Source of the DNA: Dehalococcoidia bacterium
GTDB lineage: Bacteria > Chloroflexota > Dehalococcoidia > Plut-88900
NCBI GenBank assembly: GCA_965207225.1
Contig: CBDBLV010000005.1
Span: 64,001 to 128,000, forward strand
Direction: 5' to 3'
Length of the DNA stretch: 64,000 nucleotides
Program-made: the position numbers and the translations under genes
In this document: positions 1 through 41,598 of the stretch, in pieces
How the letters are laid out: every line of letters begins with the position of its first letter
Position numbering within the stretch: the stretch's first letter is position 1
The notes under the pieces: model-generated
Told to the model about the DNA's origin: nothing
Seen by the model: the letters and a program-made list of their open reading frames with translations, nothing else
The model's database searches: none

Positions 1-613
1 TCTCGGCACGCAAGCGATAGAGCCATTGGAGCACCGGCGAGCCGTGCCCGCTCCCGGCCATCTCGACCTCCGGCCCAAACATCACGTAATGCACCCCTTC
101 CCGTGCCAGGTGTTCCCGCCAGTCGAAATCTTCGAACGCAGGAGGCTCGGTGAGGGCACCTGTGAGGATCAGTGAGTCGCCGTAGCGGAAGAAGGGCGGG
201 GCCCGACCCCCAATCATCGGGGCGGTAGGCTTGGCCATGACCAGGAGAAGGCCGCTGGACTCGCCCCACGTCTCACCGCTGCGGTAGCCGTGAATTGCAA
301 AGCGGAACCGGGTGAGGCCGCCCTGGGTCTCGGGGTACTCTTCGATAACACCGATTATCTCTACTGTTTCAAGTCGGGAGAGGGCTTCCAGGTGTTTGGG
401 AGGTCCTGAAACGGGAAAGGCAGCCCCCCGCCCTGCCCCTAACAGCAATGCGGCAAGTATGAACAGGTAGATTGCTTTGGGGTGCTTTCTTAGAAGAAGA
501 CCCCCGAGAACAGTGAGGCCCGCGGCAATGAAGAACGGCCACGGGAGCAGGTCCAGTTCAGACCCGGCAAATATACCGACAACCAGGGCCCCGCTGATGT
601 AGACGAGGGTCAT
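1..613 (-). CDS. comEC: ComEC/Rec2 competence protein, N-terminal part (runs off window start)
   Basis: Manual translation from ATG 613: MTLVYISGALVVGIFAG...LLLGAGRG...RYGDSLILTGALTEPPAFEDFDWREHLAREGV, i.e. TM helices then the OB-like region typical of ComEC; directly downstream of comEA. Not in ORF track. Confidence 0.85.
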   Translation of the reverse strand, partial: MTLVYISGALVVGIFAGSELDLLPWPFFIAAGLTVLGGLLLRKHPKAIYLFILAALLLGAGRGAAFPVSGPPKHLEALSRLETVEIIGVIEEYPETQGGLTRFRFAIHGYRSGETWGESSGLLLVMAKPTAPMIGGRAPPFFRYGDSLILTGALTEPPAFEDFDWREHLAREGVHYVMFGPEVEMAGSGHGSPVLQWLYRLRAE

Positions 614-1691: not shown

Positions 1692-3218
1692 CTACTCTAT
1701 CGAGCCGTAATGACGGTCGAATATCCCTTGAATTTGCGGCCATTCGTCTTCCGAGACGTATGTCCGAAAGGCTTCCTCTAAAACACAGCCGTAATGTCCC
1801 ATGGATATCTGTTCCCGGCATGCGGCATCATGTGAAACAACACCATGATTTGCCAGATAGAGGCGTCGGAACCCCTGACGGAAGGTAGTCTCATCCATGT
1901 TCAGATAAAGATCGTGCAGAAGGAGCATTCCTTGTGAGTACTGACAGCTCGCGTAGTTCCATTCCCAGGAGGATGGCTTAGGCAAATCTTCGAATTCGGA
2001 AATAGTGTCAACCAGAGTGCATGCAACCCAATCTTCCCTTATCCAGTTTTCCTGCAATTCGTCGACAGTAAGATGCAACTTATCCTCAACGAGATAACCT
2101 AGAAAGTTGGCTGAGCTTTCATCAAGCCAGGGGACACCACCGAACCAGTAATGGTGGGCCGTTTCATGGGCGACGAGAGAGGTAAATTCACCTGCTGAGC
2201 CCTGAAGGCCACATTCCTTGCTCTCTCCCATGCTCAACTGTATAAACGTGGGGTGCCGTGCCCCACCGCCCACCGTTGTGTCCCAGAACAGGTAGACGAC
2301 AGGGTGGACTGGGAAGGGAACTGACATGAACTCCTCAATAATACGAACGGAACGCTCCATAATGTCCATTGTGAAGTCTCTTTTGCAAGAGTCCAGTGGT
2401 TGGGGCCGGATGATGCTTAGTTCTATTTCGCCCGCAAGAGGCGAGGTGATGGTCGTATCTTCCGTCGAGGTAACTCCTGGGTCTAGGAGGTCCCCTATGC
2501 TCGCATGGCGATATATCCGGCCCGTGCTGTCTGTGACTTCTGCAGCAGTGAGCGCAGCGGTGGAGAGAATCTTCGCTTCTCGCTCGCTTATTCCGTCTTC
2601 TATGGCCGGATGATATTTAATTCGGTTGAAGCCCTCTGGATGTTTCCAATCATAGGTTACTTTGGCCAGAGAGATTAGGGCCGGGTAATTCCTGCCTTCG
2701 TTAACCCATGGTTCCTCTTGTAGTCTTGCAGTGAACTCCGGTTCGATCTGAGTCAGACGTACGAGAGCTCGGCTGGCTTCTGCCTCCAAGGCTTGAAACG
2801 GATTAAAGTCGATTTTGGCAGGTGGCAAGGGAAACCTGGGCGTAGGGACTGGTGTGGCCGTTGGGACGGGTGTCGCTGTAGGAGTTGGTACGGGTGTCGC
2901 TGTTGGGACGGGCGTAGGCGCCGGTGTGGGAGTAGGCATTGGTGTGGGAACAGGCGTGGGCGCGGGGATAGGTGTTGGCACGGGTGTGGGTGCGGGGATC
3001 GGCGTAGGTGGGATAGCGGACACCGTTGCTTCCATCCCTCCTTCTATCGTGGCATCAATGTCCGGAGTTGCGCTCGGCGCGGCCGTCGGTAGTGCCTGTG
3101 CAACTGCGGTCTGGACGGCGGCGTCTATGTCCTGTGTAGGGGGTGGACTCTCTACACCGCGCGAGCACCCTACAAGCGCAACCACCAGAATCAATGCCGC
3201 TACGCTCATAAACCTCAT
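1692..3218 (-). CDS. Lipoprotein with Pro/Thr linker and gluzincin-like metallopeptidase domain
   Basis: Lipobox LVALVGC, (PT)n linker, HETAH...WLDE zinc motif; paralogous C-terminus to 25702..28242. Confidence 0.75.
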   Translation of the reverse strand: MRFMSVAALILVVALVGCSRGVESPPPTQDIDAAVQTAVAQALPTAAPSATPDIDATIEGGMEATVSAIPPTPIPAPTPVPTPIPAPTPVPTPMPTPTPAPTPVPTATPVPTPTATPVPTATPVPTPRFPLPPAKIDFNPFQALEAEASRALVRLTQIEPEFTARLQEEPWVNEGRNYPALISLAKVTYDWKHPEGFNRIKYHPAIEDGISEREAKILSTAALTAAEVTDSTGRIYRHASIGDLLDPGVTSTEDTTITSPLAGEIELSIIRPQPLDSCKRDFTMDIMERSVRIIEEFMSVPFPVHPVVYLFWDTTVGGGARHPTFIQLSMGESKECGLQGSAGEFTSLVAHETAHHYWFGGVPWLDESSANFLGYLVEDKLHLTVDELQENWIREDWVACTLVDTISEFEDLPKPSSWEWNYASCQYSQGMLLLHDLYLNMDETTFRQGFRRLYLANHGVVSHDAACREQISMGHYGCVLEEAFRTYVSEDEWPQIQGIFDRHYGSIE

Positions 3219-3340: not shown

Positions 3341-3460
3341 CCCCCGTACTGAACTAGAGGCCCACGTGGGTGCGACGCACCCACGTGGGCCTCTGTTCTT
3401 CTCTCCCCCTCTCCCTTATAGGCCCTAAGGGAGAGGGGGACCAAGGGGGTGAGGGTTCCC
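3341..3460 (-). repeat. ~120-bp composite repeat with variable palindromic cassette, copy 1
   Basis: Same scaffold (GAACCCTCACCCCCTTGRTCCCCCTCTCCCT...GAACAGAGGC-var-GCCTCTAGTTCRGTAC) at 9758-9879 and 53755-53873. Confidence 0.85.
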
Positions 3461-3624
3461 TGCGAGGGTTGGGGGCATCCCTTCCCCTGTAGGGGTGCCC
3501 CTCGTGGGTACTCTGCCCGCCAACCACGCCAAGACTTGCATCCCTCCCCCCAACAAATCAAACCAATCCATCAATCCCACGAATCACAGTTCAGATATTC
3601 CCTTCAAAAGCCGCACATTTGCTC

Positions 3625-3653
3625 TTGACACACCTGTCCGACCGTACTATCAT
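3625..3653 (+). promoter_or_regulatory. sigma70-type promoter of structured element copy A
   Basis: TTGACA (3625-3630), 17 nt, TATCAT (3648-3653); conserved in copies B and C. Confidence 0.8.
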
Positions 3654-3659
3654 GTCCTC

Positions 3660-4248
3660 CGTCCGATCGAACACTAACTCACATCAGCAAAGGAGGAACC
3701 AAAAACCCAGGGAAGCCCCCGTGACCCGACACCGAGGACTCAACGCCCTAGCCCATCCCAAGACCTCTCCCCTCCCGTAGGGAGGCGACCGGCCAATCGC
3801 CCCCCCTCGTGAGACAGGCAGGTTGCGGCACAAGCGAAAAGCGCCATCTCCTCACCCAACGGGTCCCGTGACCCTTCCCCATCCATCCAGGCGATGGAAG
3901 GTCCACAACATTAAGCGGCACGCTCTTCACTTACGAGCCCTGCCGAAAAACCTCGGGCTATTACGCCCTTGGAAAAATCTCCCCCGTCGTTCCCCTCGGA
4001 GATTCCCGTTAACCCAGCGACGGTAGCGAGAAAACACCCACCCACCCCTCCGAGTGGGTCGGGAAAACTGAAAAACTGGTGGCAGAGACGCCCTCTGGCG
4101 AGAACCCCTCGCTTGTCTGCCATGTGACACAGGAATACGGGGCTGAACCAGGCTGGCCTCCCGCCCCCTGAAACTGAGTCCCGGACCTTCCATCGCCGAC
4201 CCCCTCCAAGACGGACAAACTGAAAACAGAAACCCCACAACTGAATAG
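3660..4248 (+). ncRNA. Candidate large structured ncRNA, copy A
   Basis: Conserved blocks shared with two other loci; 15-bp inverted repeat 3890-3904 / 4183-4197; no conserved ORF; ends approximate. Confidence 0.65.
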
Positions 4249-4287
4249 AGACCGGGGTGTCACCGACCTGCCGGACCGGTGCGCCGG

Positions 4288-4345
4288 TTTGTACACCCCC
4301 GACCCTCGGGGTAGATTTGTACACCCCCGACCCTCGGGGTAGAAT
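4288..4345 (+). promoter_or_regulatory. 28-bp tandem duplication forming twin moaA promoters
   Basis: tttgtacacccccgaccctcggggtaga x2 (4288-4315, 4316-4343); TTGTAC-17-TAGATT and TTGTAC-17-TAGAAT. Confidence 0.65.
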
Positions 4346-4381
4346 GGAAGTCGGGAGGGGTGGCCTGTCCATTTCCAGCGC

Positions 4382-5422
4382 ATGAGCAACGACGCTTCCA
4401 CAACACACCCCGACGCCATTCTCGACCTGTTCGGGAGACCGCTGAGGGACCTGCGTATATCCGTCACCGACAGGTGCAACTTCAGATGCACCTTCTGCAT
4501 GCCCGCGGAGATATTCGGAGAGCGCTACCGCTTCCTGCCCAAGGATGACATCCTCACCTTCGAAGAGATAAGCCGCTTGGCCCAACTCTTCGTCAATCTC
4601 GGCGTCCGCAAGATACGCCTCACCGGCGGGGAGCCTCTCCTCCGCGACCAGCTTGAAATCCTTGTGGAACAGCTGGCCTCCATCGAAGGGCTGGAAGACC
4701 TGGCCCTCACGACCAATGCGTATCTTCTCTCCAAAAAGGCTCAGACACTAAAGGATGCCGGCCTGAAACGGGTCACAGTGAGCCTGCACACGCTGGATGA
4801 CCAGGTATTCGGGTACATGAATGGTCGGGGCTTCGGGACGGGTCGGGTGCTGGAAGGGATCCGGGCTGCGGAGGAAGCGGGTCTGGCCCCTATCAAGATT
4901 AACGTGGTCGTACAGAAGGGGGTCAACGAGCACACAATCGTCGACCTCACCCGCCGGGTCAAAGACATGGGCCACATCCTCCGCTTCATCGAGTTCATGG
5001 ACGTCGGCAACCTGAACCAGTGGGAGTCCGACCAGGTAGTCACCTCGCAGGAGATAGTCGGGCTCATCGAACGGGAGATGCCCCTTGAACCCGTCGACAA
5101 GAGCTACCGCGGCGAAGTCGCCGACCGCTACCGCTACGCCGACGGCAAAGGCGAGATCGGGGTCATATCCTCGGTGAGCAACCCGTTCTGCGGGGACTGC
5201 ACCCGGGCCCGCATCTCCGCCGAGGGCAAGGTCTACACCTGCCTGTTCGCATCCAAAGGGAATGACCTGCGCGGACCGCTCCGAGCCGGTGCCAGCGACG
5301 CGGACTTGACCGATATTATCAAAGGAATCTGGGCCCGCAGAGCCGACCGTTACTCGGAGGAGCGGGCTTCGCTCTCCGGGAGCCGCGCCAAGAAGGTGGA
5401 GATGTATCACATCGGCGGGTAG
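4382..5422 (+). CDS. moaA: GTP 3',8-cyclase
   Basis: LRISVTDRCNFRCTFC radical SAM motif, CGDCTRAR..C second cluster, C-terminal IGG. Confidence 0.97.
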   Translation: MSNDASTTHPDAILDLFGRPLRDLRISVTDRCNFRCTFCMPAEIFGERYRFLPKDDILTFEEISRLAQLFVNLGVRKIRLTGGEPLLRDQLEILVEQLASIEGLEDLALTTNAYLLSKKAQTLKDAGLKRVTVSLHTLDDQVFGYMNGRGFGTGRVLEGIRAAEEAGLAPIKINVVVQKGVNEHTIVDLTRRVKDMGHILRFIEFMDVGNLNQWESDQVVTSQEIVGLIEREMPLEPVDKSYRGEVADRYRYADGKGEIGVISSVSNPFCGDCTRARISAEGKVYTCLFASKGNDLRGPLRAGASDADLTDIIKGIWARRADRYSEERASLSGSRAKKVEMYHIGG

Positions 5423-9757: not shown

Positions 9758-9879
9758 GGGAACCCTCACCCCCTTGATCCCCCTCTCCCTCAGGGCCATT
9801 GAGGGAGAGGGGGAGAGAAGAACAGAGGCAGAGGTCGGCGCTTCTGCGCCGACCTCTGCCTCTAGTTCAGTACTGGGGA
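9758..9879 (+). repeat. ~120-bp composite repeat with variable palindromic cassette, copy 2
   Basis: Scaffold as at 3341-3460; cassette AGAGGTCGGCGCTTCTGCGCCGACCTCT. Confidence 0.85.
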
Positions 9880-9974
9880 GAGGGCCGGGGATGGGGTGAA
9901 CTGCGGGGTTGTGGGTGATTTTTCCGGAGGGATGGATTCCTGCCTCCGCAGGAATGACGGAGAGGGGAGGCGGT

Positions 9975-10591
9975 GGGTTATTGGGTTGTGGGATTTGGGT
10001 TGGCATTTTGTTTGTTGGGTTTTGGGTTGGCGATGGAGGTCCGGGACTCGGATGCAGGACCTCGATGGCACCTACGCCGACGCTGGTGGCATCGGCGGTT
10101 GTCCTGCCTTTCCCTTCACGCATGCCTTGGGAGACTTGCCGGTGTCGAGGGCGTCTCTGCGTGGGGACATCCGCTCTCCGCATCAGCGCTCGACCGCTGT
10201 ACGGGGCGGCATATCGGCTCGATTACCGCCGTGGGCGGAAGGAGCCGCATAAGGGCGCTAAGGCCCTGCATAACGAGTCAGAAGACTCGCGGAATTCCTC
10301 GACGAGGGTAAAGTCGGCGAGGCGTATACGCCCGGGTAAGGGGCGTCGTATCGGCAAGGGCGTCGTTATAGAGAGGCCTGCTGCCGCATAGAGTCGATGG
10401 ACCATCCATCGCCTGGAAGCCAGGGAAGGGGGTACGGGACCCGTGGTGAGGAGATAACACCTTCAGCTTGAGCCTCGGGCCTGCGCGAGGGCCTTTGGGA
10501 TGGGCGAGTGCGTTGAGTCCCTCAGGTCGGGTCTCGGGGGCTTCCCCGGGGTTTTGGTTCCTCCTTCTATTATCAGATGTTTGTTCGAACG
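9975..10591 (-). ncRNA. Candidate large structured ncRNA, copy B
   Basis: Conserved blocks as in A and C; long-range arms 10399-10413 / 10029-10042; ends approximate. Confidence 0.65.
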
Positions 10592-10597
10592 CAGGAT

Positions 10598-10626
10598 ATG
10601 ATAGTACGGTCGGACGGGTGTGTCAA
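10598..10626 (-). promoter_or_regulatory. sigma70-type promoter of structured element copy B
   Basis: TTGACA (10626-10621), 17 nt, TATCAT (10603-10598). Confidence 0.8.
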
Positions 10627-40599: not shown

Positions 40600-40870
40600 C
40601 AGATTCCTCGCGGGGCATCGGAATGACAGAGAGAAAGAGGGTAGGGTGGGGGAGCCGTACGAGACGAGTTGGCAAGGCGTGGGCCACCCTCCGCTCATAC
40701 TTCGAGAGCCTCAGCACGAGCGGCCCAGCACCCGGGGATGGATTCCGGCTCGGGGGCCGGAATGACGGCAAGTGGGGGGAAGGGTGAGTTGCGGGGTTGT
40801 GGGTGACTTTCTCGGAGGGATGGATTCCCCCCCGACTTCTCGGGGGCAGGCTTTCCTCGGGAATGACGAT
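40600..40870. repeat. REP-like palindrome cluster
   Basis: ggatggattcc...ggaatgac units and ccgctcatacttcgagagcctcagcacgagcgg. Confidence 0.7.
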
Positions 40871-40901
40871 ATAAAGAGCGGGGATGATGGTGGGGGAGGT
40901 C

Positions 40902-41563
40902 GGGTTGTTCGGTTGTGGGGTCTGGGTTTGCATTTTGGTCTGTCTGTTGGGTTTTGGGTGGGCGATGGAAGGTCCGGGACTCTCACGCAGGATCTCTTTG
41001 GCACCTACGCCGACGCTTGTGGCATCGGCGGCTGTCCTGCCATTCCCTACACGCATGCCTTGGGAGACTTGCCGGTGTCGAGGGCGTCTCTGCGCGGGGC
41101 CTTCTGTTCTCCGCATCAACGCTCGACCGCTATGCGGAGCAGCATTCGACTCGAAGCCGTCACGGGGGAACTGTGTCCTCCGATGGCGGCAATTATGGAG
41201 CCGCGTAGGGGCTCTAGGGCCCTAATCCCGGTAACGCCGGGCCGTACACTTTCGCGGGCAAGTCAATGCCAGCGACATAGGCGTCCCAAGATAGGGAGCA
41301 CCGATTCGGCTGGGCCCCTGGAAGGGGGTGTGCCGCTTAGAGCTGATGGACCTTCCATCGCCTGGATGGATGGGGAAGGGGCACGGGACCCGTAGTGAGG
41401 GGATTACGTTCCTGGCTTGTGCCTCGGGCCTGCGCGAGGGCCGTTGGTATTGGCCAGGGCGTTTAGTTCCCCGATTGCTCGGGGACGATGCCTCTGGTCG
41501 GGTCTCGGGGGGTTTCCCCGGGTTTTTGGTTCCTCCTTCGATTATCAGATATTTGTTCGATCG
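40902..41563 (-). ncRNA. Candidate large structured ncRNA, copy C
   Basis: Conserved blocks; perfect 15-bp arms 41348-41362 / 40961-40975; ends approximate. Confidence 0.65.
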
Positions 41564-41569
41564 CAGGGT

Positions 41570-41598
41570 ATGATAGTACAGTCGGACAGGTGTGTCAA
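41570..41598 (-). promoter_or_regulatory. sigma70-type promoter of structured element copy C
   Basis: TTGACA (41598-41593), 17 nt, TATCAT (41575-41570). Confidence 0.8.

Follow-up and report, generated by a model that had tools for sequence, protein, structure and literature searches.

What kind of genetic element places the same promoter, the same Shine–Dalgarno-like box with no start codon behind it and the same long-range helix, in the same order, at separate intergenic loci of one genome? The question is raised by three loci, here called A, B and C, in a stretch of 64,000 nt (the window) from the genome assembly of a Dehalococcoidia bacterium (GCA_965207225.1, contig CBDBLV010000005.1, positions 64,001 to 128,000 of the forward strand). 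A sequence-only reading of the window had described them as a three-copy, self-promoted, structured non-coding element and as a candidate for an undescribed large RNA. They belong to a genus-restricted, multicopy, non-coding unit that has a conserved promoter, covarying helices and a strict polarity towards neighbouring genes. In our view A, B and C probably belong to a family that is specific to the genus and numbers about 40–70 non-coding cassettes per genome, dispersed and each with its own promoter; such a cassette would be old and recombining, lie between genes and give rise to a stable structured RNA. This degree of confidence applies to the explanation taken as a whole.

Size and distribution of the family

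All three loci and every block that the sequence-only reading had listed for them were found in place in a three-way alignment with a mean column identity of 72 %, and the copy number of three proved to be an underestimate by more than tenfold, as the family has about 40 copies in this genome. A BLAST comparison of copy A with its own 4.03 Mb assembly returned 72 matches, and blastn hits obtained with A, B and C formed 61 loci, of which 38 measure at least 480 nt. Because the same layout recurs at these 38 loci, the shared architecture lies far beyond chance. The putative RNA measures, from box to tail, 552 nt in A, 582 nt in B and 627 nt in C.

BLAST detected the element in all eight other genomes of the same genus, but in none of three other genera of the family and 29 further families of the class. 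The 5′ domain was also cast as a covariance model (R1; 40 sequences and 170 positions, from eight genomes), which gave 23–69 matches per genome in all nine genomes of the genus and none in three sister genera. At class level (E≤0.001), R1 matched the five sampled genomes of the genus and none of 146 genomes from 110 other genera of the class, in a search with stricter filters and 18 candidates scored per genome, which weak homologues may escape. An exact 25-nt pattern of the element, searched in one genome per species, was found in at least 100 stretches, those listed coming from eight assemblies titled Dehalococcoidia bacterium; the same pattern had no match in viral contigs, and a viral origin is thus unsupported.

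The anatomy described below was established on a pool of 119 distinct copies, 40 from this genome and 79 loci from the eight other assemblies, from which box matches with a close ATG or without a following GGGAA motif (ordinary genes or chance hits) were left out. A search of sequencing runs pointed to 22 with matching sequence, in 11 studies and none of them RNA; those labelled sponge or marine metagenome contained 0.17–0.37 of the sampled words. In short-read data, contigs of four runs break at 3343–3370 and resume at 4176–4203, none of them spanning copy A, and the summed contig depth over the element is far above that of its flanks, as expected of a repeat.

Promoter, leader and start-less box

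The TTGACA-17-TATCAT promoter noted in the sequence-only reading is present in A, B and C and agrees with the consensus at 11 of 12 positions (Table 1). Between 3300 and 4500, two promoter-like sites were found, compared with 0.2 expected from shuffles. The pattern TTGnnn-16..18-TAnnnT occurs in 116 of the 118 copies with enough upstream sequence (TTGAC in 114), over 79 distinct spacers; since the spacers differ to this extent, the promoter geometry has been kept while the sequence drifted, which supports the view that a σ70-type promoter of the cassette is under selection. Three promoter–leader types were distinguished in this genome, freely combined with different bodies. The leader is of nearly constant length, as the −10 element ends 29–37 nt before AAGGAGG in 114 of 116 copies, and 70 of 116 leaders contain a perfect 8-nt palindrome (GTTCGAAC in 55 and GTCTAGAC in 15). 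Given that the conserved promoter geometry and the polarity rule described below argue for transcription, the cassettes are presumably transcribed.

The leader is followed by the box AAGGAGGAACCAAAA, which is found without a start codon in all three copies, as had been reported. Its AAGGAGG core is invariant and is a perfect complement (..CCTCCTT..) of the 3′ end of the 16S rRNA of the same genome, CACCTCCTTTCT. In all 119 copies, the 25 nt 3′ of the box are free of ATG, GTG and TTG, and genuine genes of this genome carry the same AAGGAGGAACC sequence followed by ATG. We infer that the start-less box either binds the 30S subunit, as a STAB-SD element does, or pairs within the RNA. The only 16S rRNA gene found (G000 C4:510741-512337) follows a PrpD-like gene at a distance of about 200 nt, and a cassette copy (C4:508473-509028) stands in front of that PrpD-like gene.

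Architecture of the RNA

The proposed multi-domain RNA is supported in that two domains are present and helices covary on the promoter-sense strand, with compensatory changes in the long-range helix, here called P2, and in the interior that it closes. The copy A RNA folds in the sense orientation at −202.2 kcal/mol (z −6.09, none of 100 shuffles being as stable), and the antisense strand reaches a z-score of −1.83. The boxes of the 5′ domain are nearly invariant in 40 sequences from eight genomes, and the domain occurs in length classes from 65 to 305 nt. RNAalifold applied to a MAFFT alignment of this domain yielded weak structure, and a naive all-against-all covariation scan was swamped by G.U noise. 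The suggested pseudoknot between GGACTC in this domain and the 3′ GAGTCC has no comparative support: the two motifs occur independently (43 of the 119 copies have both, 48 only the 5′ motif and 16 only the 3′ motif), and the three copies with an altered 5′ GGACTC keep GAGTCC unchanged.

The 15-bp helix P2 has its arms where they had been placed in all three copies (with one bulge in B). By the earlier arm coordinates it closes interiors of 278 nt in A, 356 nt in B and 372 nt in C, while a fuzzy match of the 3′ arm gives 277, 356 and 371 nt (one extra base in A and C); across the copies the interior ranges from 190 to 550 nt. Among the 1785 base-pair cells of P2 in the 119 copies, 1720 are Watson–Crick, 32 G.U and 13 A.C, and positions 12, 13 and 14 switch pair type (GC/AU/UA, UA/CG and CG/GC, respectively). 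The mean duplex energy of the distal arms is −14.0 kcal/mol with their own partner versus −9.9±0.36 kcal/mol with shuffled partners, the observed value being reached in none of 200 shuffles.

By sequence, the interiors can be sorted into ten or more subfamilies, of which the three largest have 39, 18 and 17 members. In an alignment of 26 interiors of the largest subfamily (A3), the 54 predicted pairs are 97.1 % paired, versus 35–56 % when the partners are slid by 1–3 columns. Eight pairs have changed on both sides, versus 3.0±1.1 in shuffles (0 of 500), and 74 G.U cells stand against 18 A.C cells, 25 of the G.U cells coming from one constant pair.

The RNA is predicted to end in a C/A-rich, G-poor tail with a median length of 44 nt (A 45 %, C 41 %, G 9 %, T 5 %, 119 copies pooled). 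In the 40 copies of this genome, the mean predicted pairing probability is 0.15 in the tail versus 0.59 in the body. In copy A, the minimum free energy (MFE) fold pairs the GGAGG of the box with the CCUCC of the tail. The features by which large ornate structured RNAs are recognized as a kind, namely a length of several hundred nucleotides, covarying helices and conserved unpaired boxes, are thus all present, although this is limited by the fact that the copies are related and that the 5′ domain varies little.

Coding potential and catalogued RNA families

A decayed protein-coding gene, named in the sequence-only reading as an outcome that would count against it, was sought in indels, substitution phases, Pfam matches and start codons, with a negative outcome throughout. 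In 565 copy pairs, 4127 indels were counted, of which 2807 are single-base and 431 (10.4 %) have a length divisible by three; the substitutions show no preference for any of the three phases (7493/7451/7519), and none of the eight open reading frames (ORFs) overlapping A, B and C matched Pfam. Long opposite-strand ORFs of 160–224 aa with no family match were noted at 3911-4585(−), 9909-10391(+) and 40772-41395(+). Gene callers are likely to place spurious ORFs of 100–230 aa, annotated as hypothetical proteins, on cassette loci.

The expected absence from Rfam was likewise confirmed. With Rfam 15, no match at gathering score was obtained on the 64 kb window, none at E≤10 on 3500–4400 (copy A), and nothing inside the element bodies at E≤1 on 13 further loci. 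OLE, ROOL, GOLLD, HEARO, group I and II introns, RNase P, transfer-messenger RNA, signal recognition particle RNA, 6S RNA and the small ribozymes were rejected as identities, as none of their covariance models matched. No published description of such an element was found in a full-text literature search, which lay outside subscription journals and supplementary files.

Orientation and docking at neighbouring promoters

The copies are strictly oriented with respect to the genes that follow them. For 36 of 39 copies the next gene has the same orientation as the cassette, and the upstream gene is on the same strand in 19 and on the opposite strand in 21, which indicates that copies sit in divergent or tandem-sense intergenic regions and avoid firing against a gene. 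Moreover, some copies lie at a fixed distance from the next promoter. Neither regularity had been noticed in the sequence-only reading. A 3′ flank of 85 nt or more was available for 93 of the 119 copies (26 with shorter flanks were left out), and of these 93 copies, 31 have a same-strand promoter-like site within 110 nt of the tail, and 24 of these sites start 40–49 nt after the tail end, versus one on the reverse strand and 1.3±1.2 in shuffles, in a tally that counts syntenic loci of different species several times. A 3′ extension motif, EXT, which follows many tails, ends 4 nt before TTG in 12 of 21 cases. The docked promoters differ between loci and belong to host genes, because they are still present where the cassette is absent.

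At the moaA locus, genomes of the genus with and without the cassette have common sequence only from the TTTGTACA box onward. The moaA promoter is conserved in all nine genus genomes, including six with no 5′-domain match in the flank, and the cassette is present at this locus in three of the nine genomes and in no sister genus (within the 1.5 kb examined). The promoter sequence TTTGTACACCCCCGACCCTCGGGGTAGA is tandemly duplicated at 4288–4345 and single in the closest relative. At another moaA locus (L189, G004), an EXT-like sequence, GAACGAGTACACC, stands 2 nt before the −35 box with no 5′-domain match within 1.5 kb; it may be the remnant of a lost cassette, or EXT may exist alone.

One explanation of these findings is that the cassette acts in cis, as a transcription unit that docks upstream of host promoters and keeps a fixed distance to the −35 box of the next gene. 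It would operate by conditional read-through past a Rho-type tail or by promoter interference, with the 5′ domain as the common sensor of a dispersed regulon. The sense orientation, the recurrent 40–49 nt spacing and the position of EXT are what such a unit would be expected to show, the EXT matches that abut a −35-like box in this genome are those behind element tails, and the near-invariance of the boxes in every copy fits a role exercised locus by locus. However, the downstream genes scanned (20 of 36) are functionally unrelated, and include genes of transposase, peptidase, amidohydrolase, MFS, S15, radical SAM, CoA-transferase, KatG, PrpD, Rieske, Lgt, Def, ABC, MoaA and Glu/Gln-tRNA synthetase type. 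Each gene keeps a promoter of its own that is also present in genomes without the cassette, a strong intrinsic terminator separates cassette and gene in ten of 40 copies, including B, the cassette is present at moaA in only a third of the species, and the spacing tally is inflated by syntenic loci. A cis-acting unit therefore appears to us a tentative explanation, somewhat unlikely as it stands. Membership among riboswitches or other cis-acting leaders was rejected on the same grounds, that is, downstream genes with promoters of their own, intervening terminators and no common pathway among the 20 genes scanned.

Copy B shows how complete the separation can be: its promoter and RNA are followed by a terminator with a 19-bp stem, and then by the next gene's own promoter at 9607-9579(−), which agrees with the consensus at 11 of 12 positions. 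The terminator-type repeat concerned, TERM, precedes the box by 130–300 nt in 21 of 40 copies and follows the tail in ten of 40, on the same strand throughout and in reversed orientation in none. TERM is a repeat family itself, with 97 sites genome-wide, each a 19-bp GC-rich stem with a T-rich run (TTCTTCTCTCCCCCTCTCCC), about a third of which flank RNA cassettes, always on the same strand. The modules that follow the tail in the 119 copies are EXT in 31, a palindrome resembling REP elements in 15, TERM in eight and other sequence, including diverged EXT, in 65.

History and mobility

The dispersal of the family raises the possibility that the RNA belongs to a non-autonomous mobile element and serves as guide, template or ribozyme for its own spread through a protein encoded elsewhere, by analogy with the stand-alone omega-RNA or HEARO copies of IS200/IS605-type elements. 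The copy number is high and the structure is that of a modular mosaic. Filled and empty sites differ between species by composite indels of 800–1900 nt, sites filled elsewhere matching empty ones here; the cassette has been gained at moaA within the genus; other repeats (TERM and the REP-like palindrome) often lie alongside; and sites directly upstream of −35 boxes may be preferred. This part of the mobile-element option raised by the sequence-only reading, the gain and loss of loci between species, has held up.

Other hallmarks of a transposon are not apparent, however. The best pair of copies within the genome is 95.5 % identical, and of the 51 mappable loci of other species, 36 also hold the element here (14 of 14 for the closest genome and from two of eight to seven of eight for distant ones). 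In four between-species comparisons of filled and empty junctions, and likewise at moaA, no target duplication could be seen; the flanks are 73–92 % identical and composite indels blur the junctions. The repeated unit lacks terminal inverted repeats. Its one long inverted repeat, P2, is internal, preceded by about 265 nt (promoter, leader and 5′ domain) and followed by 44 nt that are conserved. Since the promoter lies inside the repeated unit, copying must have taken place at the DNA level.

The search for a partner protein was also negative. The sequence-only reading had advised looking for copies next to a reverse transcriptase (RT), transposase or nuclease gene, and no such partner was found next to the copies. 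In the assembly, which is 92 % complete, TnpB-type and IS110-type genes gave no match, and the search for IscB-type genes was uninformative, as its control was silent as well. One of the 20 neighbours scanned is an rve transposase. Four RT genes are each at least 16 kb from any copy. Two of these are 586-aa ORFs with RT matches of identical scores (G000 C2:158087-158773 and C5:1548409-1549095), likely a recently copied retroelement, and the other two encode 641 and 652 aa near C5:1553600-1554400 and C5:1671500-1672300. The interiors showed only chance-level 19–20-mers and one 46-nt match elsewhere in the genome. An antisense-guide function was rejected on the ground that the interiors lack complementary targets, and an RNA of an RNA-guided transposon (omega-RNA or bridge RNA) on the same ground together with the failure to find TnpB-type or IS110-type genes. 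With copying at the DNA level, no viral match and most loci positionally conserved, the mobile-element RNA is in our opinion unlikely. A miniature inverted-repeat transposable element (MITE) or other non-autonomous DNA transposon was rejected for want of terminal inverted repeats, near-identical copies and a TnpB-type or IS110-type partner.

At syntenic loci of two species whose flanks are 94–96 % identical, the 5′ domain and tail align at 77–92 %, and the interior is partly unalignable, which, together with the discrete interior subfamilies, points to exchange of the interior cassette by recombination.

Possible readings as a trans-acting RNA or as a DNA-level repeat

The cassettes could alternatively be many gene copies for a trans-acting large structured RNA, such as a ribonucleoprotein (RNP) scaffold, a sponge or a ribozyme, comparable in size and ornateness to OLE, ROOL and GOLLD. 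A length of 0.5–0.75 kb, conserved single-stranded boxes, covarying helices and a strong promoter consensus are all compatible with such a function, as is the insulation of the units by terminators before and after, and the self-complementary 8-mers near the 5′ end could mediate dimerization. ROOL, GOLLD and OLE are reported to form homo-oligomers (PMC12286853). On the other hand, a set of 40–70 diverged paralogues with at least ten interior subfamilies is unlike any known trans-acting large RNA, no conserved neighbouring protein gene emerged from the 20 downstream genes scanned, and fixed docking at host promoters would be meaningless for an RNA of this kind. CsrA and Hfq, the usual partners of sponge RNAs, were not found in the 92 %-complete genome, on which account a CsrA or Hfq sponge was rejected. 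The ribozyme or RNP role considered in the sequence-only reading received no specific indication of either kind, and a trans-acting function is, on balance, doubtful.

That the family is purely a DNA-level repeat or a decayed protein-coding gene with incidental RNA features is very improbable, for although ORFs of 103–234 aa overlap all three copies (mostly on the opposite strand) and the genome is full of other palindromic intergenic repeats, there is no coding signature, the promoter geometry is kept over 79 spacers, the fold z-score is strand-asymmetric with G.U exceeding A.C, and the 36 of 39 orientation rule implies active transcription.

A model of the cassette

The reading that we prefer, an old, recombining intergenic cassette that makes a stable structured RNA, may be set out as follows. 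The cassette would be a small transcription unit with a σ70-type promoter and a leader of 29–37 nt, usually with an 8-nt palindrome, followed by the invariant Shine–Dalgarno-like box without a start codon and by a two-domain folded RNA of about 0.35–0.8 kb. The RNA would comprise the conserved 5′ hairpin domain, then the 15-bp long-range helix closing an exchangeable interior, and last the unstructured C/A-rich, G-poor tail. The box may bind the 16S rRNA 3′ end as a STAB-SD-like shield against RNase J, or may pair with CUUCC or CCUCC inside the RNA, and the tail may be a loading site for Rho; both Rho and RNase J are encoded in the genome. In some copies a TERM hairpin would end the transcript before the host promoter. 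The net product would presumably be a stable, abundant structured RNA, any read-through adding to transcription of the downstream gene. At the DNA level, the cassette would be an old intergenic mosaic repeat, most loci of which are common to the species, with some gained or lost, and in which recombination reshuffles interiors and promoter types between copies; survival would be tied to polarity, so that copies last almost only where they fire along the direction of the next gene.

Several points weigh against this model. Transcription, transcript ends and abundance are deduced from sequence. The genes used for the orientation count were called with our own crude codon-usage ORF scorer, and the family scan was limited to 20 of the 36 downstream genes. 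In the 5′ domain, double changes were found in two of 27 predicted pairs, and its fold depends on thermodynamics because near-invariance leaves almost no covariation. The switch of pairs in P2 is essentially one event common to two subfamilies, with a few minor variants, the G.U excess in this helix is only 2.5-fold, and the covariation of an inverted repeat could also stem from the DNA level. The shuffle controls overstate significance because the copies are related. The box is itself predicted to be paired with a probability of 0.64 (40 copies of this genome), so that internal pairing fits better than free 30S binding. Finally, the invariance of the boxes over 40–70 copies would be unexpected for a redundant trans-acting RNA, unless gene conversion homogenizes the copies.

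As to what the cassette is for, we consider three possibilities roughly equally likely: that it affects the adjacent promoter or gene in cis, that its RNA acts in trans, or that it exists solely for itself. The constant distance to host promoters, like the invariance seen in each copy, inclines us towards a cis or insertion-site explanation. Against an indispensable cis role speak the terminators in between, the fact that host genes have independent promoters, and the uneven occurrence at moaA. A more far-reaching and, for the present, speculative conclusion would be that the family represents an undescribed class of genetic element, a 0.6–0.9 kb promoter-to-tail RNA cassette that docks in sense 40–49 nt upstream of host σ70 −35 boxes at 40–70 loci per genome throughout the genus and swaps its interior RNA module. 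Targeted docking would imply an element that seeks promoters and has no known transposase; if it were functional, it would constitute a genus-wide RNA layer that spans dozens of unrelated promoters and shares one sensor domain and a Rho-type exit.

Relation to known systems

The nearest kinds are the large RNAs OLE, ROOL and GOLLD, HEARO and the omega-RNAs, and the intergenic mosaic repeats, and the cassette lacks defining features of each. OLE, ROOL and GOLLD are single- or few-copy RNAs that lie in operons or prophages, OLE having dedicated partner proteins. Like them, the cassette specifies a multi-domain RNA without coding function, about 600 nt long, whose boxes are highly conserved and which has no known biochemistry. 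Unlike them, it occurs in 40–70 dispersed copies, each with its own promoter, and it has an exchangeable interior, no partner gene that could be found and no Rfam match.

HEARO RNA, which is linked to IscB-type nucleases, was first noticed as a multicopy, dispersed RNA with many copies that lack an ORF. The cassette is likewise a multicopy dispersed structured RNA; it differs from HEARO in having no Rfam match, no TnpB-type gene that could be found and no flank-derived guide segment, as well as in its doubled size, the promoter inside the repeat and the lack of recent mobility.

Repeats such as BIME/REP, ERIC, Correia, RUP and BOX are dispersed, intergenic and modular, are transcribed with their neighbours, sometimes with promoters, and are shuffled by recombination; they measure 30–200 bp, have terminal inverted repeats or single hairpins, and rarely possess a dedicated promoter. 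The cassette resembles such mosaic repeats and MITEs in being dispersed, intergenic, modular and reshuffled, and differs from them in its 0.6–0.9 kb promoter-to-tail unit, its many covarying helices and its strict orientation rule. It is filed as a large structured non-coding RNA family that is also a dispersed intergenic repeat.

By the features generally known to define a rut site of Rho, the tail may be compared with one, being a C-rich, G-poor, predicted unstructured 3′ stretch after a structured, leader-like RNA in a genome that encodes Rho; on the other hand, its median length is only 44 nt, it is as rich in A as in C, and the 3′ ends are predicted. For the box, the closest parallel is the STAB-SD of the Bacillus thuringiensis cry3A mRNA, described as a 5′ Shine–Dalgarno-like stabilizer with no translation start that is complementary to the 16S rRNA 3′ end (PMC4113751). 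The cassette has the corresponding sequence features (AAGGAGG, a probable transcription start nearby, no start codon and a host with RNase J), from which stabilization would follow only by analogy. Whereas STAB-SD sits in the leader of a protein-coding mRNA, the cassette box heads a non-coding RNA and is predicted to be possibly paired internally.

This RNA family is new in the sense of being absent from Rfam, and it was found, in the genomes searched, only within one uncultured genus of Dehalococcoidia. To our knowledge, large structured bacterial RNAs of unknown function are rare, and each new class is informative. We know of no described element that combines a conserved promoter of its own, a start-less box, an exchangeable interior, sense orientation and a fixed spacing to the neighbour's promoter. 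The nine genomes of the genus provide about 420 natural sequence variants that may be used for structure work. If cis-acting, the cassettes would regulate dozens of metabolic and housekeeping genes as one dispersed layer; as selfish units, they would point to an unknown way of settling beside promoters.

Feature coordinates and flanking sequences

The features of copy A and its surroundings, together with the main parts of copies B and C, are collected in Table 1.

Table 1. Coordinates of cassette features and adjoining elements in the window
Feature	Position	Strand	Remarks
Copy A, promoter TTGACA-17-TATCAT	3625–3653	+	11/12 consensus positions
Copy A, leader (−10 to box)	3654–3689	+	Counterparts in B and C hold palindrome core TTCGAA
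Copy A, Shine–Dalgarno-like box AAGGAGGAACCAAAA	3690–3704	+	No start codon; 7-nt perfect complement in 16S rRNA 3′ end
Copy A, 5′ domain (long irregular hairpin)	3690–3889	+	GGGAAG/CTTCCC, GACCCG/CGGGTC, GAGGA/TCCTC, variable tip; predicted MFE fold
Copy A, helix P2, 5′ arm	3890–3904	+	Pairs with 4183–4197
Copy A, interior cassette	3905–4182	+	Predicted multi-branched fold; largest subfamily; 26-sequence alignment A3
Copy A, helix P2, 3′ arm	4183–4197	+	Pairs with 3890–3904
Copy A, C/A-rich, G-poor tail	4198–4241	+	Predicted unstructured; ends CCCCACAAC; carries CCTCC able to pair with GGAGG box
Copy A, 3′ extension (EXT variant)	4242–4287	+	Reaches −35 box of moaA promoter
moaA promoter TGTACA-16-TAGAAT	4318–4345	+	Outside cassette; tandem copy of same promoter sequence precedes
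TERM upstream of copy A	3355–3395	+	Terminator-type repeat; 19-bp stem and T run; same strand as copy A
Copy B	9985–10626	−	Promoter 10626–10598; box 10566–10552; P2 arms 10413–10399 and 10042–10029; tail to 9985
TERM behind copy B	9823–9864	−	Intrinsic terminator about 120 nt behind copy B; 19-bp stem, 13 GC pairs, T run
Copy C	40912–41598	−	Promoter 41598–41570; box 41538–41524; P2 arms 41362–41348 and 40975–40961; tail to 40912

Further repeats accompany the cassettes on both sides. Directly after the upstream TERM lies a palindromic repeat, CTCCCCCTCTCCCTT..AAGGGAGAGGGGGA (about 3396–3441), which is also found upstream of many other copies, and a G-run/C-run hairpin, GGGGGGATATTCCCCCC, followed by AAAA, stands just before the cassette promoter. 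The REP-like palindrome GTCATTCCCGAG..TCGGGAATCCATCCC is present in the 3′ flanks of B and C (e.g. at about 40860–40900). In other species, 3′ flanks such as those of L102, L115, L136 and L138 contain one to three tandem units of CCGCCTC(A/T)GGAGGA(C/T)TGAA between tail and EXT, each of which holds a Shine–Dalgarno-like GGAGGA without a start codon. The divergent neighbour of copy A, at 1692-3218(−), encodes a predicted lipoprotein of 508 aa with a long Pro/Thr/Ala-rich linker and a C-terminal part containing HExxH.

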